Source: Lophium mytilinum
Lineage: Eukaryota
Direction: 5' to 3'
Length of the DNA stretch: 64,000 nt
NCBI GenBank assembly: GCA_010093605.1
Contig: MU004183.1
Location: 1,178,001-1,242,000, forward strand
Part shown: piece by piece, positions 704 through 22,250 of the stretch
Position numbering within the stretch: the stretch's first letter is position 1
How the letters are laid out: each line of letters starts with the position of its first letter
Notes under the pieces: generated by a model
The model's database searches: none
What the model saw: only the letters and a program-made list of their open reading frames with translations
Told to the model about the DNA's origin: nothing
Made by a program: the position numbers and the translations under genes

Positions 704-2204
704 TTCTTGTGTTGGTGTTGAGGTGTTTTCTGATTGATTGATGCGACTAATTGATATTGTCGATGATAGTAGGTCGTACTGATCGATCTCGTCTGAGGTC
801 TGGATGCTTTACAATTCGATTTTGTACTGAATGGTTGTGGACTCCTACAAGACGACTGCGAGACAGCCTTTATAGCACCGCGAGGTCATGGTGTACACCC
901 AGCCGCGATCTGTCCACTGTAGAAAGCGCTCGTCACATTACTCGAATTTGATTATCATACGTCCTTTCATTCTTGCGATCACGCAACAAAATGGCCGGCA
1001 AGGAGTCCCATTCGACGCTGTGTCAGGGGCGCAGCCAGTGGCGCGGTGTGTCGATTACTGTCACGCCACATTATCAGCCCTACTTCGTACCTCGATAGCA
1101 CCCCATGGCGAACATTCTCAACCAGCAATACCATGAACGTAACAGCAGCTCCCATGATTCGTGACTGCCGTATCTCTCCTAAATACCAGGCGGCGAGTTC
1201 TAAAGTCAGAGTCTCCCAAGCTTGGGTCTAGCAGTCGAGCTGGCAACGCTCGGCCGGGTGACAATCTGATGATTTCGCACGTCTGTCAAGAGGGATGCCT
1301 ATCATTCGAACGAGCGGTAAGATGCTGTTCTGCAGATCAGATAGAATAATGCTTGGACACATCATAAGATTGTTCGAGATCGTTCCTTTCAGTCCCTTTT
1401 CGGCTTCCATCTGGATGCGCGGAAGCCGCCGAAAGTGGCGTGTTCCTGCAAGCCCACGCCGGCACATTATCTACCCCCACACAAGCGTGGGAATACGAAT
1501 TGTCGCTTTCCGTTCTCTGTATACGCCAACATCAGTGTAAAGGCAACCCGCTAATTGGGGCAGAGTTCAATCCCTGGGTGGAAGTACCTCATATCAGAAT
1601 ACAGAAGGCCCATTCTTAAGCCAAATTTTACTTACGCTGAGTGGGTTGGCTAAACCTTCGGTAACACAAAGTGTTACTTTCCATGTATCCCTCTTTTGCG
1701 GCTAACTTCCTCCCTCCTTTGCAGCTAACTTCATGGCTTAACATCTGCGCTAGACCGGCGGACATGTATTGATGCTCTTTAGTGTAAATAGGCAAAATAG
1801 CACAAAGACATTAGCTTAGGAAGCGCACCTTTAGTATCTATCCGGCTTTTACAGGTAAAGCTTAATCTAAATAGCTTACCTACTAATATATATACTAGGG
1901 GGACTAATATCTATACCCCTTTTTTTCTCTATATATACTCTATCTATTTCCGTTATCTATATATACATCTTATACCTAATCTTCTAATTACCTAGAATAG
2001 CTTAGAGCCTTATTTCGAGCTTAATTCTTATATATATCTAGGTGTCTAACACTACTACTACCCCTAAATAAGACTAAGAAGAAGATTAAGTACTAATTTA
2101 GTATTATATAGTGTTTGTTTTTTATAGTATTATATTATTCTATAGGGCTAAATTAATAAAGTAAGTAAAAGTAGAGCTATATTTATTATAGTATACTAAT
2201 TTCT

Positions 2205-2620
2205 TAGATCTATCTATCTATCTATTCTTACCCTAAAGCTATGCCTTTAATATCTATCTATCTATCTATCTATCTATCCATCTATCTATCTTTTAGCTAT
2301 CTATCCATCTATTAAACTATCTATCTAATTACCCCTTTTATAGGCTTAACTATTTATCTATCTTAAGATTAACACTAATCCTAACATATTAATAGCTTAT
2401 AATAGCTATAGTAAAATAATTAGCCGGGTTAGGCTTAGTTTTACTTCCAGTATCCTATTTCTTAAAATTATAATATATCTAAATAGACATGTATTTCTAG
2501 TAAAAACTACTTTATATAGACCCCTAGCCTCTATTTCTTTAAAGAATAAAATGTAATAAAAAAAGATAGAAATAAATCTTTTCTCCTGTATAATACTGGT
2601 TAGGTCTAATTACTTTACTA
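2205..2620. repeat. Degenerate repeat with TATC tract; related copy at ~6237-6650
   Basis: Both copies have a (TATC)n tract followed by 'tacccctttt..taggcttaactattta...ataatagcta.agtaaaa...aggctta.ttttactt'. Confidence 0.6.
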
Positions 2621-2901
2621 GATTCTAATTTTCTTAGATTACTCCTCTAGAGCCTTTACTTTATCCGCTTACTTTATTAAAGATACCCTCTCTAATTATA
2701 GTATGTATTGTTATGCTCTATTTTCTATAATCTGCAAAATCTATAGGGACTAGAGTAGATGCACATAAAGGCTCTATTCCTAGTCGCAGCGTAAAAAGGT
2801 TTAGATGCTAATAAAGTAGAAGAGGCTTTCCCTAATTAAAAGTAAAAAAGGTATTATAGCTCTCCCTATTATTTTTAAAGAGACTATTAAATTTTAATCT
2901 A

Positions 2902-3179
2902 TATATATACTGTATAGAGTTAGTTTAAGAATAGATAGCTAGATAGATAGATAGATAGATAGATAGGAATTATATTACTTAAGATCTAGTCTATACTAAT
3001 AGTAATAGAGTTATATATATACGCTATTTAGTGCATTATAAGAAGCTCCTCTAATTTCTTTTAATATTTTCTAATAAATATTATATTATAATATAAGGCT
3101 TATAGCATTATTCCTATTATAAGGTTTTTAAGCCTATTAAAGGCAAGAATATAGTAGTTCTACTTTTATAAAACTTATA
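2902..3179 (-). mobile_element. Solo LTR, older RIP-degraded copy of the ~260-bp family
   Basis: Aligns by eye to the other copies (gatagataggaatt...aggttttta.gcctatta). ATCTA flanks both sides (2897-2901, 3180-3184). Confidence 0.65.
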
Positions 3180-4211
3180 ATCTATATCTTATCTAGATTT
3201 AGGGGGATACTAAAATTAATAAGTTAGACTGGCCGCTTATAGTGCTTCTACACCTCTTAATAGGCAGCCTACCCGTTGCACTCCTTATTTAAGATAGGGT
3301 GTGGTCCCTAGTATTCTTTTTTAAATAACGCTAAGGGCTAGATACTAAGTACAGCTATAGTATTCCTGAAGCCTTTAGTGAACCTAGATTTAAAGACTAC
3401 TAATAAAGCTTTAAGAGTTTAGAAACAGTTATTTTTAAGATCTTATAAAACTATTAATATTACTTTAGTCTATAGGCGTTTAGCTGGAAGTAAGAATCTT
3501 ATAAAAGGATATAATTTATCCTATAGCACCTTAGAGGATTCTAGTAGCGTTCCACCCTAATCGCGCTTTAAGTTTACTATCTCTTATAAAAAATTAAGTA
3601 ACATGCTAGTAAGGTAATCTACTACCTTGCACTAATTTTAAGTTTTCTAATAAATATTTGCCCTACCTTAATAGGCCTAAGGGCTTCTATAGCTATAAAA
3701 CCCTAAATTCTATATTTATAGAGCTATAGGTGGGCAAGATAGTAGAATATTACTAGCTAGGTAGTAACTACTAGGGGTTAGCTAATAAACCTTAGTAGTA
3801 CTTCTACAAATTATTTATAGTTTAAGGAGTATTTTATGTAGCTAAGAGTCCCTAGTAATAATTACTATTAAAATATTTACTAAAAGTAATATATCTAACT
3901 TCCAGCGGCATACTTATACTAGATACACTAGCTAATTCTAAAAGACTTAGATTAGTATAGTTTCTAGTTTCTAAAGTTTCTTTAGCAACTTAATGAAGAA
4001 AACACTAAATACTATTTAATATAAATTTATAAGTAGTTAAAATATTTTAGGGTTAGTAATCTAGATTTCTAGTCCTTGAAATTTTCTATCTAAAAATACT
4101 ATCTACTAGATAGAGAGATTAAGTATATAGCACAGCTATTATTATAATAATTTCCTACTATCTAATACTACTTCTACTAATACTTCTATTATAACTAATA
4201 TAGTATCTTTA

Positions 4212-5058
4212 GGGGAGCGCTACTGCCACGCCCCCTTTTATTAGCTACCACACCCCCTTTTGGCTACAGGCACGCCCCCCTTACGTCTGATCACTTCACC
4301 ACCTTCTAATTGGCTCGGATCACTGCTCCGGAGCCTCCGAGTGGCTCGCTTAGCTCGCGCGCAGTTTCTAAATGCTCTCTCCAAGTGCGGCGTGGCTACA
4401 AACAATCACATCCTTATCCTCTACTTCCACAATACACTCACCATGGCCCTCCAGCCACCTCCAGCACGGGCGTACAACTCTATTAAGGAAGCTGAGGAGG
4501 CGCTTACAGCGCACGCAAAGGCGCAGGGCTACGGAGCTCCGACGTTAGATGGCATTGTACGATCAGTATCTGGAGGGGTTAATGGATCAGGATAGCCAAG
4601 GAGGCGCGGCGGCGATGTAGGGGGGCCAGGTTTGATGCGGAGAGGCCGTAATAAGGTGAGGATTTGACTGTTTTGGCATGCTCATAGGCACGTAGGCACG
4701 TAGGTAGCATTACAACGGCCTATATACACTGTAGGAAACGGGAAGTATGCATAGTAAAACGGTTATGCTGTACAGCCTTGCCATAAGCAGCCTTACGTAC
4801 GGCCTCACGTACGGCCTCACGTGAGGCCTTACGTGTAGCTGGCCTATATATATAGCCTCACGGAAACGGTAAGAATGCACGATGAAATGGTGAGGCTGCA
4901 CAGCCTTCCCATGGAACACGGATGCGCGTGAGAATTGAGCGCCGGAGCTTCCTCCGAGCCCTCCGAGCCAATCAGAAGATCAGACGTAAGGGGGGCGTGC
5001 CTGTAGCCAAAAGGGGGTGTGGTAGCTGATAAAAGGGGGCGTAGCAGTAGCGCTCCCC
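4212..5058 (+). mobile_element. Non-autonomous Mutator-like (MULE) DNA transposon, internal-deletion derivative, 847 bp
   Basis: Long terminal inverted repeats (GGGGAGCGCTACTGC...CCTTACGTCTGATC, ~80 bp plus subterminal similarity). 8-bp direct repeat TATCTTTA at 4204-4211 and 5059-5066. The internal peptide MALQPPPARAYNSIKEAEEALTAHAKAQGYG resembles the N-terminus of fungal MULE/Hop transposases. Confidence 0.85.
4788..4835. repeat. Short 12-bp tandem repeat (GGCCTCACGTAC-like) with palindrome, inside the MULE
   Basis: 'cagccttacgtacggcctcacgtacggcctcacgtgaggccttacgtg' read directly. Confidence 0.8.
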
Positions 5059-5403
5059 TATCTTTAAACTTCTTAAAGTAATCTAATTTATTAATATAAG
5101 CTATTTTATTATTAGAAACTAAAGCTTTATATAATTTATCTAAAATACAAAGAAGCTTATTTTAGTATTATATAACTAAAGCAATACTAAGATACTCTTA
5201 ACTTTTATATAATGCACCTATACCCTTAGATAAAAGAAAGAATAGCTATAATAATAGCTAAATATATAATTAGAATAAATCGAGCACTTCCCGTAATTTA
5301 CTTAGGCTTATAGTAGATACTAGAGGTTAGTAAAATAGTTATTTAGTTTTAGTAAAATATTACTAAAAACGCGCTCCTTTATAAATGGCCTAGATATATA
5401 TAA

Positions 5404-5660
5404 TGTAACAATTATAATAGCATAAGCGTTATATCCTTACGCATAATAGGCTCAAAAGCCTTTAAACGGGACGAAACCGTGAGCGTTTGAACGTGATACA
5501 ATAAACGCTGGATAACGTTATAAGAACGTTAGAGAAACGTTTTATAATGCATTAAATGCTGTATATATACTCTGTTGCTGTTAATGTAGAATAGAACTCA
5601 AGTAATACAATTCCTATCTTTCTATCCATCTATTCTTATATTAACTCTATACCTTTGACA
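5404..5660 (+). mobile_element. Solo LTR (TG...CA), copy A
   Basis: Starts TGTAAC, ends TTTGACA; near-identical to the copies at 7042, 18730 and 21375. Flanks are TATAA (left) and TCTAT (right). Confidence 0.9.
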
Positions 5661-5787
5661 TCTATACTATATGTAGATGAAACTATTTAAATACCTAAAA
5701 GAAAAGGTAAAATCTTAAGATGATTTAGTATATTATTCTCTATAGAATACAGAGATGTAAAAGAATATATAGCTACTATAATTTACT

Positions 5788-6051
5788 ATATAAAGGTATG
5801 AATTAGTGTAAGAATAGATAGATAGATAGATAGATAGGAATTGTATTGCTTGAGTTCTATTCTATACTAATAGCAATAGAGTTGTATATGAACGCTAATT
5901 AATGCATTTTTAAACGCTTCTCTAATGTTCTTCTAACGTTATCTAACGTTTATTATACTACGTTTAGATGCTCATGGTTTTGTTCCCATTTTAAGGCTCT
6001 TAGGCATAGTATGCGTAAGGATATAACGCTTATACTATGATAAACCTTACA
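5788..6051 (-). mobile_element. LTR copy B (diverged subfamily)
   Basis: Reverse-complement match to copy A (ggaattgtattgcttgagttctattc...gcgtaaggatataacgcttat...ttaca). Left end and TSD not resolved. Confidence 0.8.
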
Positions 6052-6236
6052 CTAAAGAGTCTATATAGTACCTCTATTAGAGTTAATCTATTTCTAAGAC
6101 TTTAAGTACGTAACCCTCTGTATTTCTAGTATTAGAGTTTATACTAGAATATTTTAAAATTAAGTTAACGTTTACTAATAGGTTAGAAAACAAATAAAGG
6201 ATTTCTAGGTAGTAAAGTAGATATAATATATACACC

Positions 6237-6327
<91 letters not shown>

Positions 6328-6342
6328 CTATCTGTCTATCTA
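6237..6342. repeat. (TCTA)n microsatellite
   Basis: More than 20 near-perfect TCTA units read directly. Confidence 0.97.
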
Positions 6343-7041
6343 TTTATAAAAGTTTATTTATCTATTTACCCCTTTTTTAGGCTTAACTATTTACCTTCCT
6401 TGTATGTAATACTACTTCTATATACTAGTACTGTATAATAGCTAAAGTAAAAAAACCAGCCTAATCAGGCTTACTTTTACTTACTTGCAATACATCTTAT
6501 TTTAAATATATATTATTTTAGGCTTCTAGCTCTAACTACACCTATATTTCTATTTAAAATTACTCTATCTTCTATTTCTTATAAAATAGAATAATATAAA
6601 ATTAAATAGGGATATATTTTCTATCCTATATAGCACTAGTAATACTCTTTAGCTGCCCTAATATTACTGCGCTTATGCAAATAGTTCTAGAAGATAGTCC
6701 GCTTCTAGTTATTAAAGCACTTACTAAAGAGGGGATTTAGAAATGTCTAATAATATAAATTAATATTTTAGTAGAAGATAAGTACCTTCCTATAAGTATA
6801 TTAACTATACACCCTATTTCTAGTTTATTTAATAGAGTGGATATTATCTTTCTTTAGGCTAGCCTTATAATAAACTCCTTAAGTTAATAGGACTTATACT
6901 ATCTAGAGGAATTAGGAGGTTTTTAAACGTTATTATACCTAAAAATCTTACAATAATATACTAGAGAATTATAGTACCTATTAAGTATTCTAATATAGCT
7001 TAGCGTAACCTAGTAAAGAACGCTATATAATAGGTTTTATA

Positions 7042-7298
7042 TATTAAAGGTACAGAGTCAATGGGAGAATAGATACATAGATAGATAGGAATTATATTGC
7101 TTAAGTTCTATTCTACATTAACAGCAACGGAGTATATATACAGCATTTAATGCATTATAAAACATTTCTCTAACGTTCTTATAACGTTATCCAGCGTTCG
7201 TTGTATTACGTTTAAACGCTCACGGTTTTGTCCCGTTTGAAGGCTTTTAAGCCTATTATGCGTAAGGATATAACGCTTATGCTATTGTAATCTTTACA
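7042..7298 (-). mobile_element. Solo LTR copy C, inverted relative to A
   Basis: Reverse complement of copy A, with RIP-type transitions. Flanks are TTATA (left) and ATAGA (right). Confidence 0.9.
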
Positions 7299-7671
7299 AT
7301 AGACTGTATAAAAGATAAGTAACTAGTTCTAGTATTACGTTATATCCTTTAAACATTAATACTTAGATATAAAATTTTAAGCTTCTAGCTTATTTATATA
7401 TGGGGCTAACAAGGGAAAGGCAGAACTTACATACTAGTATTACTAGAGAAGCTAGTAATTATGGTAATAGAGAACCCCTTTACAGTTAAAACTAGTTAGA
7501 TTTGCGTCATGCGGCATTCTTAGGATTTGTGTGGTTTCTGCCCCAAAGAAATACTTAAGCTCATTATCATACTTCGACAACCTAGGGATATTGAGATTTG
7601 GAACAAGACGATGATAATAACAGGCCTGGATAAAGACCCTGATGCATTTTCCGATCACAGGCTACAGGTAA

Positions 7672-10064
7672 CTAGTCTAACATCGCAGTGTCTCTTCCGC
7701 CGTATGCCCCAGGCCCAAACTTCCATTTCACTAGGCCTCTATCTGTCCACGCCCAGAGCTCGTCCTCCTCTCGGAAAGCAAGCTCGAAAACCACCCCAGC
7801 CTCGGGCAGTTCGACCGGATGCAGCTCAACCATCTCTTGATCGAGTGGGTTGGACTGATAATAGCGATATCCACATCCCTCTAGATATGCATAGTCCCCT
7901 GGCACCGTTCCCTCTGGCAACGTACCGGGATCCAAGAAAGCTTTGCTGTCGATCGCCCATACGAGGACCCGTTTCCAGGATGTCATAGCAATGCGATGTG
8001 AATGGGGAGATACCGCCATTCGCACCCCAAGAGAGGACAGATTGAATAAATCTAGACCGACAAGTCTAGCAACGAAGACGTGGTGCAGATTCGAATAGTC
8101 TTTCTCGAGGTCGAATGTGTCGCAGCTAGAATCTGCACAGTAGTGGATTGCCTTGAGGAGGAACGCGCCTACGCGTCCTGGCGTAAGCCAACGAGGTGTG
8201 GTGCAATTGTGCTCCTCGCGTCTGAGCATGACTTCGAGAGCCGTATTCAGGCACGTTGGAGCACCATCATTGAGCTGCGGATCTGTGACACGATGGTGGT
8301 GATGGAAAGCAATGGCCTTTCCCAGAGAAGGCGAGCTGAATGCCTCGACGTCGTCCGGAAGGTAGTTATTGCGACGATGAATCTCTAGGCGACTCAGGAT
8401 GTTACTGACCGTCCACCGTGGAACGGGGAGGCAAGACTGGAAGAGGTGCAGTCTCTTGCCCCTGACTTGCATTGAGGAAATGATCTCATCTGCGTGGGAT
8501 TCGAGCAACGTCGAATTTGCCGGAGGTGGAACGTCTGATTCGATTAGCTTGAGACAAATCGAATTGGTGGGATATGCAGATCCTCCACAAACTGGTGGAC
8601 CGGCGACTATATGATAGGGAGCAGAGAGAGTGCTGGGAGGAATCTCATACCTTGATCGTAACGTTTACTGTACTTTGTTAATTTGTGCTTCGGATGTCGT
8701 CCTTCAAACCATCGAGTCAATACAAGCGATGTGCCAGATTTTGAGACCGCCACAGCCACCACATCGTTAGGCGTTTCGGATTCCATTTCCATCTCGAAAA
8801 CATCCAAAACTATAGGACCGAACTGTTCGTCCAACCTGAAAGTTACAAGTCGAATTGGTTCCGGAGAAGACGATGGACGCTCTTGAGCGCTACAGTGTGT
8901 TCCCCTCGTGGATTTGGATCTTTTGGAACGGTAAAGAATAGCTATCGTATGAGCGGAGTTTCCTTTAGAGCTCATCACGTCAGGTTCGCAGACCGCAATC
9001 TTGACAACTTCACAGTCAGGCCAGGCAAACGTCGAACCATGGCCCAGTGACAAGCCATACGGATCGATGATGTGAGAAAGCCTTGGACTGGCCTCGATGA
9101 TCCTATAGATTCGCACCACACCAGTATCTGCACAAACGTTTGCAAGCATGAGACCATGTCCGCTTTCTCCAGGAGAGGAAATGAGGGTGCTATTTTTCCA
9201 GTCGGTCTTCGTTGTAGGGAGGTAGGAGTAGACATCAGACAAGAAAGCGGCGCCACTGTGAAGATGTCGAGTGGCCCGTTGAGAGAAAAGTGTGACTAGG
9301 CTTGCTGCGTCTTGCTGGGAACTAGAAACGGGGTCTTGGAGACCGGGCATGCGTCTCAGCTGGTCCTTGAGAAGGGCTTTAGAGTTCAGAGCATGCTCGC
9401 GGAAGGTTTTGCAGGTCACGAGGCAGACGTAGAATGATTCGGCATCGAGTGTATGTAGTATTTGGCGGAGCAGCTCTGGGGGTAGATCGAGGAGCATCAT
9501 GCGCGGGCTCGAGGGGAAGTGAGAGCTTGCTGCCACACTCGGCGGTGATAGTCCACCTCCGGTGCGATCTACATGTATGGCATTACTGCCGATACGCTGC
9601 ACTTCTGCTTCAGAAGATCCAGAAGAACGCGATGACAAAGGAGATCGTGGGAGGGAGTCCGACATGAAATGAGGGTAGCGTCGCTCTGCCTCGTGAAAGA
9701 CGTCTGTACACTGCTGTTGAAACCGCTCAAGAGACAGTGACGCGAGCTTTTGTCGGGCCACGTTGCGCTTCTGCTGATAAGCGGGGTTCGGATGCAAGAA
9801 CCGTGGCACATTGGATGTCCTCGAGCTGCCTTTGGTCGACCACTGTTCCCGACGCAACGATTCGTCATATACATCAGTACTATGGTCCTGAAACTGAGCT
9901 TGGGGAAGTCGCGTGAGCCTGTCTTTCGTCCGGTGCGATCGACGCTGCGCGCTCTTCCGTTCTCGTAGGTGCGGGCCCAGGTATGCTTTCAGGAATGCGT
10001 AATGTTCCAAGAGTATGTCTTCCGGCCTAGGCGTCTTCCGGTTCATGGTTGTAGCGTCTGCCAT
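7672..10064 (-). CDS. F-box protein with N-terminal tandem Spa2/GIT homology (SHD) repeats, ~782 aa, 2 exons (10064-8651, 8606-7672)
   Basis: SHD-like motifs RLTRL..QFQDHSTDVYDESLRR and KRNVARQKLASL..ERFQQQCTDVFHEAERRYP; F-box LLDLPPELLRQILHTLD...LVTCKTF. A GTATGA...TAG intron (8650-8607) joins the two ORFs in frame. Confidence 0.8.
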
Positions 10065-12006
10065 GCTTGAGCATATGTCAAGTTCGATGTAGGTTCGGTC
10101 GGTTCTAGGTATGCTAGCTTGAATTAGTCAGTATATCTCGACGAAATAGAGATCTCGTCTCACAGGGAAGATTCGTAGCCCCGACACGGCAAGGCTGTGT
10201 GGGGCAGTCTCTCTGTTCGTTGCCCTGAACGTCCCCAGTAGCAGTGTCAGAGGAAAGAGTGGTGTCTAGGATGCTGTGGTGGGCGAAGTTTGCATTCAGT
10301 AACTGTTACTGTGATGGGGGCTGGAATAGAAGCCCTCTGAAGTGCCTAAGTTTATATATAGGCGGCCAGCCTTGCACACCGGACAATAGAGTGTGGATGC
10401 CTGCTCGGCCAGAGAGGAGCTGAGTCCAGCACGCGCCGTCGCCCTCAGGAGGTCAGCACTTAGGGGGAATGTACTATTGGGCGTAGACACATAGATTGGG
10501 ATGGACGCCGGCGGTGGTTTTTGCTGGTTCAATTGAGGTTCTTGTTGTTGAAGTGCTTCGGCGGGACGTTGACCTTGAAACGCACGTGCCGCCATGACGG
10601 ACACGATGAATCCAGGGTCGTGCCAAGACCTCGACATCCCGCATTTTCTGGATTATGGCAGAGGAAGCCAAAGCTGTCCACCTTTTGAGCGCGAATGTCA
10701 CATTGCTGGCCCTGGGCATTCGTATAGACCCAGTGCCAATTCTAGGCTCCTAGACATACTGCTCCGTTGGCCGCATCTTGGACTCTGTTATATATTTACC
10801 GTTTATGACCACCTTCACAAACGCATTCACTGTGCCACCATTCCTAATGGACGATTCAGCGACCTGCATGCCCCACACTGCCCACACTGGCGAGACCACG
10901 AGCGCGGGCATGGAATGGCCACACTTGCAGCTCGCCGGATTGGGGGTTTCTCATCGCCATCGCCAGCTCTTGCCCGTCGCCCTATGCATCCCGGCTCTAG
11001 CGTCGGGAAACAGATGGGGGCAGCCGTGTACAAAGGTAGATCGATAAGGGAGCCTTACAAATGCATGTGAGACGGCCATCGAATTGTCCTTGAGCTTCAC
11101 AGGCCAATGCCCGCGTCGACGTGCGTACCGACATCGCCGTTGACCCTCGTGCCTCCGACACCATCTCGCCCTCGCAGCAGCATCTCGTCGAGAACAGCTT
11201 TCGTCACACCGCAACCAGGACCGTGGTGTCCGCGGGGGGCTCGTTTCACGGGATGATAGCCGCAGAAGCGCGATGCTGCTCCGAGGGGTCCGCGCTGGCG
11301 GCGACGTTCCAGACTCGTGATCCAGCTTTGTTCCCAGCTAGTAGGCGTGACAGCAGCCGGCGGCCGTTGCATCGGGCTGGCGCGTGGTAATGGGTTCAGC
11401 GATGTCGCCAGGTACTTGAGGCCGATGATGCCACGAGGGCTGGGACAGGCGGTGTGACTCTGGACGACGACTTGGGACGAAGCTGAGGACGAAAGACTTT
11501 GGACGAAGGCCTCAGCTGGCACTTGGAACCTTAACCAGCCTCGCCGGCGCCCCTGCTCCCCGCTTGCTGCACCCTGCATGACCAGCCGTCACGAAAAACT
11601 TGCTGCTCGCCCATCGCGAGTGCCATCGGCCCACCATCCCCGTCGACTCGCTGGACAGCCTCCTGATCGAGCGTGCGCTGCTTCAATTGCGACTCTGGCT
11701 CCCCTCTGCGTGCTGCGCAGACCGTAATCCAGACGCCTCGCGTGCCCGGCCCCGCGACGGTTGCGCTGTTCTTTGATCATCGCCCCTGCTTCGCCGCGCG
11801 ACGTCATCGCAGCTGAGCGAGCACTCAACCTCACCTCGATCCACCGCCTCCTGGCCACCACCTCGCCCTCTTCGTCCTCCTCGTCCCCATCGCTACCTCG
11901 CCGCACCTCCCGTCTCATTGATGTCCCCTTCCGACATCACGCATTTCCAGCTACTGCTGGCTTTCCGGCACGCTGCCCACACTTTGCCGACACCCGCTTG
12001 AGGACA

Positions 12007-15566: not shown

Positions 15567-16673
15567 ATGGCCGACGTAGAGGACCCTTACAACCACAGCC
15601 ACCGCGCATTCCTACAAGCTTTCCTTGCGCATTCCATCCTCACTTTTGAGGAACTAAAACCTATCTTGGCCGCCATTCTATCGGTGCACGGCAAGTGAGA
15701 ATGTGGCTAAGATAGTTCGTCCTTCTGACAATTCTCTAGATGACCGCGAGGTTCTCCCCAACGACATCACCGAGCCTGATGTCTCGACCTACTTACACAC
15801 GCTGAACTCCAAGCTTGCCCCAGTCGACTACGAGATACGACCAGCGCGATCTCAAAAAGACCATTCCACCAGCTATGTGCTCGTGAATCTGACCTCAGAC
15901 GCTGTCACCCAGCTTGCAACAACACACTCGCCGGACGAAATCGCCTTCGTGAAGCGGGTCTTGGACGCCATGTTCGAGACACATAATACGCGCAATCATG
16001 AGGTTATGGCTATCACAAGAATGCAAGCGCGTCACTTGTCTAAAGCTCCTCGCACCTCCATTGCCAACGAAGACGGCGGAACGCAGACTCAGAGTGTAGC
16101 TGCGCAAGGCCTCACACTTCCGCAAGCAGAGAAAATGTTGGACGATATGGTCGAAGAAGGCTGGTTTGAAAATAGTGCGGCAGGCTACTATTCCCTTAGC
16201 GCGCGTGCGTTGGCGGAGCTCAGAGACTGGCTCAGGGAGACATACAACGAAATGCCTGGAGAGGGCGACGAGGATGAGACTGTGATTAGAATCAGGAACT
16301 GTGAGGCATGTACCGAGATTGTGACTATTGTAAGTGTTTTGCGAGTCTACCCAATACAGACTGTACTCTGTTCAACTTCGTATGGCCCGTTCTCCACGAT
16401 CGCTAACCTGCTGCTCACCAGGGTCAGCGCTGCTCAAACCATGCCTGCGCGTGCCGGCTTCACGACATCTGCACACAACGCCTGTTTAGATCACAGGCTG
16501 CGAACGCGCGGCGGTGTCCAAAGTGTAAGGAAGAATGGACGGGTAAGGACTTCGTGGGCGAGAAAGCTGCTAAACGAAATGGCGGCTCCCGTCAACACGG
16601 ATCCACGGCATCCTCGAGGCAAGTCACTCAGAATGGAGCGAGAAGGGACAGCAGCGAGGACGACGGGGAGTGA
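15567..16673 (+). CDS. NSE1: Nse1, non-SMC subunit of the Smc5/6 complex (3 exons)
   Basis: N-terminal YNHSHRAFLQAF, LVNLTSD..TQLAT.HSPDEIAFVKRVLDAMF, and a C-terminal RING-like CEAC...GQRC...C..RLHDIC...CPKCKEEW. Introns 15691-15739 (GC-AG) and 16330-16421. Confidence 0.9.
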
Positions 16674-17099
16674 TAGAAGCTGCGGCATGTGCGCTAAGCT
16701 TCCTATTAGGTGTAGTTTTACCCTGTTGGTACTGAATATCAAGTCTGCACCACCTGTCACAGGATGCGTTTAGATCTGATTAGAGAAAGACCTTTTAGCG
16801 TGCTTGTAGTTTCCTACTTAGCAAAAGGATTACCATGTTCTATATAGATATGAGTTTAAAGCGTGTAGGTGGATAAATGGAAGTTACACCACTCCAATGT
16901 GCACAACAGGTGATTTACAAGACGTTAAGATAAAGGATGGAGTGCAATTCTATACAGGACATGACAGGAACGTGCGCAGATAGGGGTACAGTAAGCTAGC
17001 TAGCTAGAACAGAACATGAGCCGTAAGCTAATACTGTGACAATCTCTTGCTAAAGACTTTATAGCTAATCTATCTTTTATTAGAATCTAAGTCCCTTCT

Positions 17100-19385
17100 A
17101 CTACACCATTAACCGCATTAGAACATTTCTCCTATTAAGTCGCGTTGCTATTTAAGAATATAAAGGCTAGCTAATCTAGACCTGGCTGCGGATCATTAAG
17201 TATTGAACATTAGGATTCAGCCTATTAGCCCTAAGCAGCAGATCGAATCTCTAGAAGTATTCGATCCACATCGCCGTTGCGCACAGATCGGTATATAACA
17301 GCAGAATGTCGCCTAAGGGTGAAGATTCAGCCAAAGAAATACAAGAAATAAATAACGTTTCCGGTTACGGTCACTGTGGCGGCTGAGTATGGAACATCAA
17401 AAATCACACCCATGAAAATCGAGATCACCAAAAGAAACAGGAACCACGCAATCGCTCTAGATGTCATAGGCGGAAGGTAAAAATTTCAACGGCTTTGAGG
17501 CGCTGGGAAGATACCAGAATTTGTCTTTTCGCGCATAGGATATCCCGCATTTTGTCGTTGGTTGCGGCAGCCTACCGAGCCTGTTGAACTTTCTTAGTTT
17601 CGTGGTAAAACAAGCTTTGGATTTGTGAAAGCTGAAGGTCATATGCTCGACCGACATCTTCGAGGCATGTAAGGTCTGAAACTATGCCAATTGGAGAAGT
17701 AGGCCTGATAATTGATTTGTTACAATTATAAGTAATTGGATTTGGCGCCGCACTGTTTGTGTTTTGCTGATCTTGAGCTAGGCTGCGAGTTTTAGAGTAT
17801 GTTTCCTATTAACAATAAGAACAGGAACAGAATTATAATTCATTGTCATAGAATATCTCTGCAGCTGCAAGTAACGGCAGTATAACGAGAAGCAGTAGAG
17901 TAATCTGGCCAAAACTCATTCCAGTCTATATGAAGAGTATTCGAAATGCTCCACCGGAAGTACGCCACCTGAGCAAGCCCGTAGGACACCATCAAGATAT
18001 TTTGAGGTAATAACGAAAGAAATAAGCCCTGGTAGAAGAGTGGGATTATGGATTCTACTGAGTTTTTCGAGCGCTATACATCGATATCGCGAAGATTCTT
18101 CGGTGCTGCTGGTCTCATCTCCAACATTGTGCCACTCCAGTCTTGTTATTTGAGCCTTCCTAAACCTGAATTTCGCTAGCATCCATATAAAACCGTGGAC
18201 ATCTATGAATTAGGGATATTCGCCAGCTGTCCAATACGACCGTTCAATTTTCTCGGCATAAATGAAAATAAGTAACACTATTAGTAGGATCCAGAAAAAA
18301 ACCATCAGTCCAGAAGAACTTTTGCAGAATTCAACTCCGGGTTTGCCGTAGAACAAGCACTGAACCAGCATCCACGGTTCCAAAGGTCACAGTAGCATGG
18401 TGATAATGAAGCAGAATACAAGTACACCGAGAATCATAGCCATACCAAAGACACGCCAATTGCGAATTTTGCCATGGGAGATGAAGTAGTCCTGCAGACA
18501 ATCAAGTATTGCAAGGTGGGTGGTTGCTGAAAACCACACCAGGCTCAATGTAATCCTCCACTCCTGCACTGAGAGTGTACAAGGATTGGCCACGGCTGCA
18601 AGCAAACAGCCAGGCCCGTAACAAGTTGCTGATCGCTGAGCACAAGGATAAAGCGTAGCGTGGCCTCCTGCTGTTTCTCCCGAGGCAACCTTTGTTTTGT
18701 TGTGCAGGATGTTTTTTAGATGCAAGTAGTGTAAGCTTTACAATAGCATAAGCGTTATATCCTTACGTATAATAGGCTTAAAAGCCTTTTAATGGGACGA
18801 AACTGTAAGCGTTTAAACATGATACAATAAACGTTAGATAATACTATAAGAATATTAGAGGTATATTCTATAATACATTAAATACTATATATATACTCTA
18901 TTACTATTAATATAGAATAGAACTTAAGTAATAAAATTCCTATCTATCTATCTAACTATTCTTATATTAACTCTATACCTTTAATAAGTAGGGCTAGTTA
19001 TAGACTTTAAAGACTCCTTTAGAAAAAACTAAGTAGATAGATTAGACTATCTTAGAATCCTTAACTATTAAGATACTATTTAGGGAATAAGTTAGATAGG
19101 TATTTATATATAACTATAAATACAGTTATAATTACTAAAAGGAGAAAATAGACTAGAACCTATATATTTTATAGGGAGGATATTTAAAGGGTATACTAAG
19201 CGCGATAAAAGAAACTAAAAATAATATATAACTATAGCATAAGAAATGTAATTATTAACTAACATTCTAGAGGTAGAAAATTAGCAGGTTAAAAAATTAA
19301 TCTTAGCTTACTCTATTCTAATAATATCTATACTAACTTATACTAGACTCTATATAGAATAGTTAAGGCTTCTACTATATTCTAT
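17100..19385 (-). pseudogene. Pseudogene of a fungal multi-pass membrane hypothetical-protein family, split by a solo LTR
   Basis: Family motifs LSDQQLVTGLA / (frameshift) / LLAAVANPCTLSVQEWRITLSLVWFSATTHLAILDCLQDYF...RNWRV, and MSFGQI..LL..LPLLAAAEIFYD, with stops and frameshifts. A RIP-degraded 5' part (LxxS...DIxxI, intron, VLVYFLL) lies beyond the LTR. The 3' boundary is approximate. Confidence 0.7.
18730..18986 (+). mobile_element. Solo LTR with 5-bp TSD AGTAG
   Basis: TGTAAG...CCTTTAATA (RIP form of CCTTTGACA). AGTAG at 18725-18729 and 18987-18991. Confidence 0.92.
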
Positions 19386-20576
19386 TATTATAGCTTAGGT
19401 TTATATTTCTATTTAATACCACCATTAAGACTTAGAAAGTTACTAATAATAAGAGATAATATTTTGTAATCTATAGTAGAAAGGATATAGTAATTAGAAA
19501 GAGATAAGGGTAAGTTTTACTAAGTTAACTAAGGCTACTATAGGCGTAGCAGCAATATACTAGGTAGCTATAGTAAGGCTAAAACCTTTATTATTTTAAA
19601 TTATAAGATAATATAGTAGTATAGGCTAGGAAGTTATAATAGTAAGGAAATATACTTACTACCCTTAGAAGAGAGAGAGTAGAGAAGGATAGTCTTAAAT
19701 ATATTATATAAAAAATAAGACTATAGGTACTATACTATATAGAGTAGACTTTATAAGAAGGAAAGATAATAAATAATAAAGTACTTACCTCTATAATTAA
19801 AAAGAGGCCTAATTACGCACTATATACCGCTTATATATCTATACTAATATACTTTACTTTAATAAACCTAAGTATATAGAGGGTATTAGGAAAAAAGAGC
19901 TAGATATTTTATAGTATAAGTAGAGTAATAGAACCTTTATAATTAAAAAGAGTACTTAATTATATAATAATGCTAACCGGTAACTAAGAATTTCTAACTA
20001 CTAATAATTATTAGGAATTTAAGGGGCTAAGCTACTAGTCTAAGTTCTTTTAAGCGGAACTAGATTTACTTATAAAATACTTTACTTATTCTTACTAATA
20101 GGTAATTTCTAGATGCCGGTGGATAGTGTTAGCTCTATTCTAGGCTAATATAAAAATAATTTATAGTAGACCTAGGTAAAAGTCTAGTTAAAATATATTT
20201 AGACTAGATATAGATATAATTATACTAACTCTACTATAGGTATCTAATATTAAGTATATATATTTATTAGGCTAAAACAGAAATAGAATTTAGATAGAAG
20301 AGTATTAATTATATTATTAATCTATAAATAACTCTAATACTAGATAGGCCTTCTAAAGTAGGTAAAAACTCTAGTATTAATAATACTTATTAGATACCTA
20401 GCCTAAAACTAAGTTCTTCTTAGCTTTTTAATATAAGCTTAGAATATCTATACTCTAGTTAATTTATAGCGTAGGCTTAAACTATAAGTAGCTTACTTCC
20501 TTCTCTAAATTACAAAGGAAACTATCTATATATATATACTAGAATAATATATCTATAAAAATAAATTTATATCTAG

Positions 20577-20631
20577 TACTAAAGATATAAAGTTAGTATA
20601 AGTATAGATAAATAGATAGATAGATAGATAT

Positions 20632-20667
<36 letters not shown>

Positions 20668-20960
20668 GTAGGTAGATAGGTAGATAGGTAGATAGGTAGA
20701 TAGGTAGATAGGTAGATAGGTAGATAGGTAGATAGATAGATAGATAGAAAGGTAGAAGAAGCCTTTATTAAAGTATCTTTTAATATTTTAGTATATATAG
20801 CTTCTTAGCGCCTTCTAAAGCTTATAATCTCTATAAATATTATTTAATAAAAGCTATTTAATCTAGTTAAACCTATTCTAGCTTTTATATTTCCTTTTAT
20901 TAGCTTTTAATAGCGTATTCTACCCTTATAGCTACCTATATGCATATTATAATATATAGC
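20577..20960 (-). repeat. Compound (GATA)n/(GGTAGATA)n microsatellite (~20605-20748), probably within a highly diverged LTR relative
   Basis: Microsatellite read directly. It is preceded by 'tactaaagatataaagttagtataag', which resembles the reverse-complement LTR end 'tgtcaaaggtatagagttaatataag'. Confidence 0.6.
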
Positions 20961-21193
20961 TAAAAGTTATAATTATACTCTAGGCTTATTAGACTCTATA
21001 TACCCCTACTTTACTATATAGCTAATATTAACCCTACCTATTATTTTATAGTATTTTTAACTATATATTTCCTTTCCTTTATATATATACCTATTCTATC
21101 TTTAATCTTTAAATTAGCTTTAAGTGGGCTTAGATTACTACTTTAGCGCTTAACTCTTATATATATCTATACTATATAAAAAGGCTATACAGC

Positions 21194-21215
21194 CTCTCTC
21201 TCTCTCTCTCTCTCT
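21194..21215. repeat. (CT)n microsatellite
   Basis: About 11 CT units read directly. Confidence 0.9.
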
Positions 21216-21374
21216 ATTTTCTATAAGAGTTTAGTCTATATATAGCTGGTTCTAAAGCTATTTATATAGCTATACTAAAGGCTATATATAAGGTAAGGCT
21301 TTAGAGTATAGTATAGAAAGGCTATTATAAAAAGGCTATTATATTATTACCTATATGCCTATAGGCCTATAAGC

Positions 21375-21639
21375 TATAAGGTTTACAATAGTATAAAAGC
21401 TATATCCTTACGCATAATAGGCTTAAAAGCCTTTAAACAGGACAAAACTATAAGCGTTTAAACGTAATATAATAAATATTAGATAATTTTACTAAAATAT
21501 TAGAGAAACATTTTATAATGCATTAAATGCTGTATATATACTCTGTTGCTGTTAATGTAGAATAGAACTCAAGCAATATAATTCCTATCTATCTATCTAT
21601 CTATCCATCTATTCTCCCATTAACTCTATACCTTTGACA
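21375..21639 (+). mobile_element. Solo LTR with 5-bp TSD TAAGC
   Basis: TATAAG (RIP form of TGTAAG)...CCTTTGACA. TAAGC at 21370-21374 and 21640-21644. Confidence 0.92.
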
Positions 21640-22250
21640 TAAGCATGCTAAAACCGTTATGCCCACACTTTAATTTAGCTCCTTTACAGTACTCCTAACG
21701 CTTCTCCATTGCCCCTGCCTCTACCAAGCATGAGAATAGAGCACCAAATGAAGTTCCGGGCCTTTCTGGCTAATCAGGAAATCAGACGGGAGGGGGGTGT
21801 GCGTGCAGAGATGACGGGTTGTGCGTGCAAAGGAAAGGGGGTTGTGTAGTTGACGCCCTTGTTTTACTACTTCTGTTACTATATTGAGGTAAGTTTATGT
21901 CCTCTATAGAAGTTGCATGCGAAACATCTTTATACAAGTGCTGTGTAGTGATCTTTCGCGCTCTTACTTAGCAGACAGGGTGGGGGACGGACAGACTATA
22001 GGGGAGGGTTATAGGATGAAAGCTTCAGAGCTTAGCTCATGCTTCTCCTCCTTGAAATTCTACTAAAAGACGGAAATCTCGGTTTGTAAATACAGTAAAG
22101 GAATCTCGTCCTTGATTCATATATAACCTCGCTGGCTGGGCCGTTACTCACAACCTCCCATTGTTCACAAGACCCAGAACACCCCTAATTCCACGCCAAT
22201 GCTATGCAAAATCCACGCTCTCATAGACCACTCATAAAGGCTGGGTACAG

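Follow-up and report, generated by a model that had tools for sequence, protein, structure and literature searches.

Swapped target-site duplications and a strand-switching NACHT pseudogene point to a 1.4-kb inversion between Copia solo LTRs in Lophium mytilinum

Introduction

The signature of ectopic recombination between transposable elements (TEs), as given in passages of Delprat et al. (2009; PMC2775673), consists of copies in opposite orientation with exchanged target-site duplications (TSDs), with reciprocal chimeras as its third hallmark. In the same passages, inversion 2z3 of Drosophila buzzatii carries opposite copies of Galileo at its breakpoints with exchanged TSDs, which were read as ectopic recombination. 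Galileo is a DNA transposon with 7-bp TSDs, the inversion is large, chimeric copies were proven, and non-inverted chromosomes were in hand.

Among fungi, recombination between dispersed TE copies is described in passages of two papers, both based on strain comparison. In the yeast Diutina catenulata, an inversion lies between inverted copies of the DNA transposon Dici1 (PMC13469147), and in Cladosporium fulvum effector genes were deleted through TE-templated non-allelic recombination (PMC10823647). Additionally, passages of a study of NLR pseudogenes in Podospora (PMC13449251) report NACHT genes that were disrupted by stop codons and frameshifts as well as by TE insertions and RIP. A literature search found no report of the present locus, and the passages of PMC9674265 and PMC12047244 included no case of a TSD swap.

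The window analyzed here is a stretch of 64,000 nt from Lophium mytilinum (assembly GCA_010093605.1, contig MU004183.1, positions 1,178,001-1,242,000, forward strand). It belongs to an assembly of 43.4 Mb in 49 contigs and includes an AT-rich island with RIP-type dinucleotide indices at about 1800-7500, bounded on the left by a region of small ORFs and on the right by an ORF ending at 7672. The gene at 7672-10127 (minus strand) has Spa2 homology (GIT_SHD) and F-box matches, and a contig of run X4 passes directly from 8534 to 8651 over a CT..AC gap, an intron that connects the two ORFs of this gene. An Nse1 frame at 15658-16773 has 100% identity over 53% of its length to a Lophium mytilinum protein. 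Heavily RIP-mutated DNA was also observed at 17100-21644, between direct solo LTRs at 18730 and 21375 whose sequences and TSDs were checked.

Reciprocal exchange of target-site duplications

Two solo LTRs of one family, A and C, lie in opposite orientations within the island. Their positions and flanking words, together with those of two sibling copies used as controls, are as follows.

5399-5403, plus strand: TSD word TATAA, whose partner is 7037-7041, reverse-complemented; read once, it gives an exact codon count over the breakpoint
5404-5660, plus strand: solo LTR A, 257 bp, Ty1/Copia family, TG..CA ends, left breakpoint
5661-5665, plus strand: TSD word TCTAT, whose partner is 7299-7303, reverse-complemented
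5661-7041, no strand assigned: inverted segment, 1,381 bp, from the TSD swap and the strand switch of the NACHT relic
7037-7041, plus strand: TSD word TTATA, the reverse complement of TATAA
7042-7298, minus strand: solo LTR C, 257 bp, 90.3% identical to A, right breakpoint
7299-7303, plus strand: TSD word ATAGA, the reverse complement of TCTAT
18730-18986, plus strand: sibling solo LTR, control, intact TSD AGTAG
21375-21639, plus strand: sibling solo LTR, control, intact TSD TAAGC

LTR A begins with TGTAACAAT and finishes with CCTTTGACA, and the 3' end of LTR C is mutated from TGTCA to TATTA. The alignment of A with reverse-complemented C was ungapped over 257 nt and included 25 differences, 21 of which were transitions. 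Read in LTR sense, A is TATAA-LTR-TCTAT and C is TCTAT-LTR-TATAA, and the reciprocal match extends over exactly 5 nt on each side and no further. A previous sequence-only reading of this DNA had proposed such an exchange and, from it, an inversion of the segment between the LTRs. Its coordinates and flanking 5-mers for A and C were all exact on rereading and its boundaries stand, as do the exchange itself and the intact TSDs on both sides of the sibling copies. It had omitted a third LTR inside the segment (B) and the host gene relic, both of which are described below.

Based on the island's own 5-mer spectrum, two random 5-mers are identical with P = 0.0032, and a double reciprocal match has a P of about 1e-5 per LTR pair, or 8e-5 for TATAA and TCTAT specifically. 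The match could be attributed to chance, with A and C as unrelated solo LTRs that have mismatched flanks in AT-rich DNA and a segment that was never inverted between them. Both words are frequent in the island (about 0.9% each), and five other solo-like copies of the family have mismatched flanks. However, the probability of about 1e-5 to 1e-4, together with a gene relic that changes strand exactly at the edge of C and whose frame resumes, exact to the base, on the left side of A, makes this explanation almost certainly wrong.

The LTR family

The copy census included 37 distinct full-length copies from fetched loci, which are a sample and not the whole family: nine 5' LTRs, ten 3' LTRs, one copy with both flanks, and 17 solo-like copies. 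Termini of the TG..CA type and 5-bp TSDs are present in the family. In the two elements that were read, paired LTRs lie about 5.2-5.5 kb apart, with gag, protease, integrase, and RVT_2 between them in Copia order, and the parent elements in loci L052 and L054 contain Retrotran_gag_2, Pol_BBD, rve, SH3_retrovirus, and RVT_2 (E 3e-46 to 3e-53). The family is Ty1/Copia. Neither the internal-start flank GGTTATGAG of the 5' LTRs nor the PPT flank AAGGGAGTG of the 3' LTRs is present at A or C, and both are hence solo LTRs.

Seven of the 17 solo-like copies had exact TSDs, three had TSDs differing by transitions only, and seven, including A and C, were mismatched. Besides A and C, matching TSDs were kept by 10 of 15 solo-like copies, and some of the other five may be misclassed 5' or 3' LTRs. 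Mutually complementary flanks were found only for A and C among the solo-like copies sampled.

Other arrangements of the family were also observed. LTRs follow a different flank, ending in GGCTAGTAGC, at C6:846407-851966 (L017/L011) and C15:218587 (L009/L063), and one copy with this flank and the internal start together suggests tandem or nested Copia arrangements. Additionally, a young solo-like LTR at C20:45024-45280 (L004/L060), 93% identical to A, has the mismatched flanks ATATA and CTATC, which may reflect a further rearrangement or a deletion between elements.

A NACHT pseudogene on opposite strands

Pieces of a NACHT pseudogene were found on both sides of the breakpoint between LTR C and the DNA left of A, where columns refer to the profile described below.

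6639-7041, plus strand: inverted NACHT pseudogene piece, columns 113-246, one frameshift near 6880
5382-5398, minus strand: NACHT frame resumed past the breakpoint, ISRPF, columns 248-252, in register, alone weak
5059-5147, minus strand: NACHT pseudogene, columns 253-282, best register at column 254
3187-4203, minus strand: NACHT pseudogene, columns 283-610 (phmmer E 2e-9; 238 bits)
2700-2870, minus strand: NACHT pseudogene, C-terminal part to column 679, right limit approximate

A phmmer search against 1.84 billion representatives, with the outside piece alone as the query (3187-4201, minus strand), identified six proteins with a best E of 2e-9. NPHP3_N/NACHT was found in four of these homologues, and a winged-helix domain also occurred among them. 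With the same four proteins, tblastn placed their earlier residues on the plus strand of 6639-7042 (E 9e-12 to 6e-7); the remaining two are short and lack the earlier part. For example, residues 113-247 of the homologue P0122 matched the plus strand at 6639-7041 (E 9e-12), where the match halts at the edge of C, and residues 390-600 matched the minus strand at 3185-3912 (E 2e-12). The own-genome search with P0122 returned 23 matches, including both pieces on opposite strands. Only one further protein came from word-based searches for homologues with P0124 and alignment A1.

A RIP-aware profile was constructed from nine homologues, and each piece between TEs was scored separately on both strands against shuffles. 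The scores were 152 bits for 6630-7041 on the plus strand (reached by 0 of 40 shuffles) and, on the minus strand, 26.8 bits for 5062-5149 (0 of 40), 238 bits for 3170-4205 (0 of 60), and 49.3 bits for 2590-2900 (0 of 200). Under free or position-limited scoring, no score above shuffles was obtained for 5661-5790, 6053-6240, and 7299-7520/7680, where the observed value was reached by 345-487 of 500 shuffles except for one case at 264. Similarly, the scores of 1800-2150 and of a MITE-like insert were not above shuffles, and in a Pfam search with 31 X-read frames from the relic no match was better than E 0.04.

The P-loop was not located by the profile, and the relic matches from the end of the NACHT domain onward. 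Of C-terminal WD40/ANK/TPR repeats and an N-terminal effector domain, the only sign was one weak PD40 match (E 0.08) in one of the six homologues, with none in the relic, which is classed here as NLR-like and not as an NLR.

In own-genome DNA searches, 5061-5403, 3190-4205, and 5140-5390 each matched only themselves, and with 6345-7041 only the repeat end within it was matched (four matches). Because no second copy was found in the genome, the flanks are considered single-copy host DNA; the candidate reading of the flanks as a TE relic was rejected. Open NACHT paralogues at C5:1226443 (L041), C9:490842 (L042), and C16:1073790 (L043) are 25-31% identical to P0122 and are thus too distant to explain the RIP of the window gene through duplication. 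Apart from the NACHT match, loci L038-L042 were not syntenic with the window's first 20 kb.

Reading frame across one breakpoint

Columns 229-246 are the best placement of the block that ends at 7039 (30.5 bits, against 5.5 for the runner-up). For the block that starts at 5143 on the minus strand, the best placement is columns 254-265 (16.9 bits, against 5.0). The gap between these blocks is composed of 2 nt (7040-7041), 17 nt (5398-5382), and 2 nt past a 234-bp insert. The resulting 21 nt equal seven codons, which is what the profile needs between columns 246 and 254. The frame fits base-exactly only if the segment is flipped, TATAA/TTATA is treated as one duplicated word, and the TA-flanked MITE-like insert is skipped.

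The flipped reading, AIXXVL-Y-ISRPF-I-LDKLYKALV, corresponds to AFEWVL-Y-NTRPM-S-APLLHRALA in P0124. The continuation in the present orientation, CIKDK, scores -3.3 versus 2.9 for the flipped one, and the latter alone is weak, at the top 3% of 11,372 island 15-mers. The frame also remained in register across the element at 4212-5058, with the next block best at column 283. At the second breakpoint, the evidence is the TSD, and the adjoining pieces do not beat shuffles.

Judging from the homologue and profile matches, the pieces form one insertion-riddled NACHT gene whose middle part is inverted between A and C, and chance is refuted as an explanation unless the profile matches are spurious. 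The proposed inversion of 5661-7041 was thus confirmed independently, by a relic that switches strand and by a base-exact frame at one breakpoint. When the flanks were read with the segment flipped, a check that had been suggested with the original proposal, one continuous gene relic was obtained with the NACHT homologues and the RIP-aware profile.

Other insertions and RIP load

Besides A and C, the following insertions were identified in the gene and the segment.

5788-6052, minus strand: older solo LTR B, same family, about 80% identical to A, inside the inversion, ends approximate
6190-6638, plus strand: right end of a dispersed repeat, TATC array at about 6237-6330, in the gene, left limit approximate
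5148-5381, no strand assigned: MITE-like insert, 234 bp, TA-flanked, heavily RIP-mutated, in the gene
4212-5058, no strand assigned: young non-autonomous TIR element, 83-bp TIRs 98% alike, 8-bp TSD TATCTTTA, not RIP-depleted, in the gene
2900-3186, minus strand: LTR D, same family, old, heavily RIP-mutated, in the gene, ends approximate

The repeat end at 6190-6638 is related to 2150-2600 and to loci L032 and L033. This repeat spans at least 2.8 kb, is rich in TATC arrays, ends in CACTG, and also occurs in L050 (6392-9239) and L051 (6212-8961). Its two window copies are direct at present and were inverted before the flip. The TIRs of the MITE-like insert are decayed (11 of 20 positions identical, 16 of 20 allowing transitions); the insert is visible only through the interrupted pseudogene frame, and no second copy was found in an own-genome DNA search. 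The TIR element at 4212-5058, which may be hAT- or Mutator-like, judging from its TSD length, has a GC content of 0.55 and a short ORF at 4245-4595 without a Pfam match, and related pieces occur in L015, L006, L009, L023, and L032.

The frequency of CA+TG per 100 nt was 2.2-3.2 in the gene, 2.1 in the TA-flanked MITE-like insert, 1.8 in LTR D, 7.5 in B, 8.9 in A, 8.6 in C, and 12.1 in the element with the 8-bp TSD. The family median was 8.8 (33 copies), and an intact homologue had about 15 (61 in 402 nt). Because CA+TG is far lower in the gene DNA, most of the RIP of the gene predates A and C, and the gene was probably already dead, broken and RIP-mutated, before the arrival of these LTRs and the inversion. 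According to the abstract of bioRxiv 10.1101/2021.04.05.438447, DIM-2-type RIP favours linkers over repeats, and such a preference could blur this order of events. The RIP load is similar inside and outside the inversion and the losses of C and G are symmetric (0.5/0.5 at 6639-7041 and 0.4/0.4 at 3187-4202), so that RIP cannot date the flip; an attempt to date it by RIP strand bias failed on these symmetric losses.

Support for the assembled orientation

Exactly this TSD swap and strand switch would also result from a misassembly in which the assembler jumped from one inverted LTR to the other and reversed the inner segment; the chromosome itself would then carry intact TSDs and a collinear pseudogene. 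The assembly does contain N gaps (in L054), and LTR C is spanned by none of the contigs of the probable source runs. However, a false join needs a long exact shared stretch, and the longest exact run is 37 nt between A and C, and 73 nt (A) and 69 nt (C) with any other copy in 66 loci. Among four runs compared, the Logan contigs at the edges of C came from two runs of one sample, which is probably the source of the assembly and so is not independent of it. These contigs matched 6345-7106 and 7263-12000 with 0 differences, which indicates that both edges of C are real. Of the other two runs, X3 has a share of 0.05 and X4 one of 0.21, limited to gene exons, and neither covers 6345-6911. The sequence-only reading had suggested that the segment may be polymorphic; the one sample that covers it showed no non-inverted allele. 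A misassembly is considered unlikely, and clearly so.

Mechanism of the inversion

The best explanation, in which we place high confidence, is that ectopic recombination between inverted Copia copies flipped a segment of the NACHT relic. A NACHT-domain (NLR-like) host gene ran leftwards through the locus, where several transposons struck it and RIP mutated it. Two oppositely oriented copies of one Copia retrotransposon would later have entered it, about 1.4 kb from each other, with duplication of TATAA by one (at a Val-Leu-Tyr motif of the gene) and of TCTAT by the other. A single intrachromosomal homologous crossover between the inverted copies would then have inverted the intervening DNA and exchanged the inner TSD copies. 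The recombining copies may have been solo LTRs, or full elements that later collapsed to solo LTRs, with an identical end state.

Such a crossover would have made A and C chimeric, as the sequence-only reading had also supposed. While its inversion stands, the chimerism of A and C is putative, as the alignment of LTR copies at diagnostic sites mapped no crossover point. The two share one indel haplotype, and RIP noise hides any switch. At 90.3%, their mutual identity does not exceed that to 31 other copies (median 91.8%), and their best near-identical stretch, 69 nt with one difference, is not unusual, since 26 of the 187 pairs that could be compared also reach it. As no fresh tract of identity was seen, the inversion does not seem to be very recent, and a return flip would by now be improbable.

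The TSD pattern and the lack of a mapped crossover also fit an inversion at integration, in which two Copia events, or one aberrant event, produced 5-bp staggers 1.4 kb apart and the ends were joined crosswise with no crossover. However, two simultaneous nearby insertions would be needed, followed by two solo-LTR reductions, and we know of no coupled integration of this type described for Copia elements. For DNA transposons, aberrant transposition can mimic ectopic recombination, as stated in passages of PMC2775673. Inversion at integration is regarded as quite improbable.

A further reading considers the inverted LTRs as an invertible switch in a then-living NLR-like gene, where the flip killed the gene, both orientations segregate, and the strength of RIP on the gene changed. 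The RIP would be altered because the flip turned the pairs 2150-2600/6190-6638 and LTR D/LTR B from inverted to direct, and the abstract of bioRxiv 10.1101/2021.04.05.438447 reports an effect of orientation on RIP in Neurospora, of which the locus, if this were true, would be a natural test. In contrast, the older insertions and the RIP depletion indicate that the gene died first, and the RIP load is similar on both sides of the inversion boundaries. The switch is given only a slight chance, and ectopic recombination in an already dead gene remains the preferred explanation.

Discussion

The analysis implies that two inverted homologous stretches of 257 bp at a distance of 1.4 kb, or their parent elements, were enough to invert DNA in a RIP-active fungus. 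The inversion is provable from one genome because the host pseudogene acts as a ruler, and swapped TSDs can reliably mark micro-inversions in a single genome, AT-rich RIP islands included. The inversion probably has no fitness effect, and no open question hinges on it.

Compared with the features described in passages of PMC2775673, inverted homologous copies, exchanged TSDs, and intervening DNA inverted relative to the homologue order were all found here. As in Galileo 2z3, opposite TE copies with exchanged TSDs occupy the breakpoints. In contrast to 2z3, the copies are 257-bp Copia solo LTRs eroded by RIP, the TSDs are 5 bp, the inverted segment is 1.4 kb, and the original orientation comes from a pseudogene. 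The locus resembles Diutina catenulata as a fungal inversion through recombination of dispersed TEs, although a DNA transposon and strain comparison were involved there, and it shares dispersed TE copies with Cladosporium fulvum, where effector gene deletions were instead seen among strains. The Podospora pseudogenes are similar in their breakage by stops, frameshifts, TE insertions, and RIP; the word inversion is absent from the main text of that paper, and the present gene has no demonstrated repeat or effector domain. Among these systems, the event is clean but ordinary: it belongs to a known kind of rearrangement, with more support than one genome usually allows.
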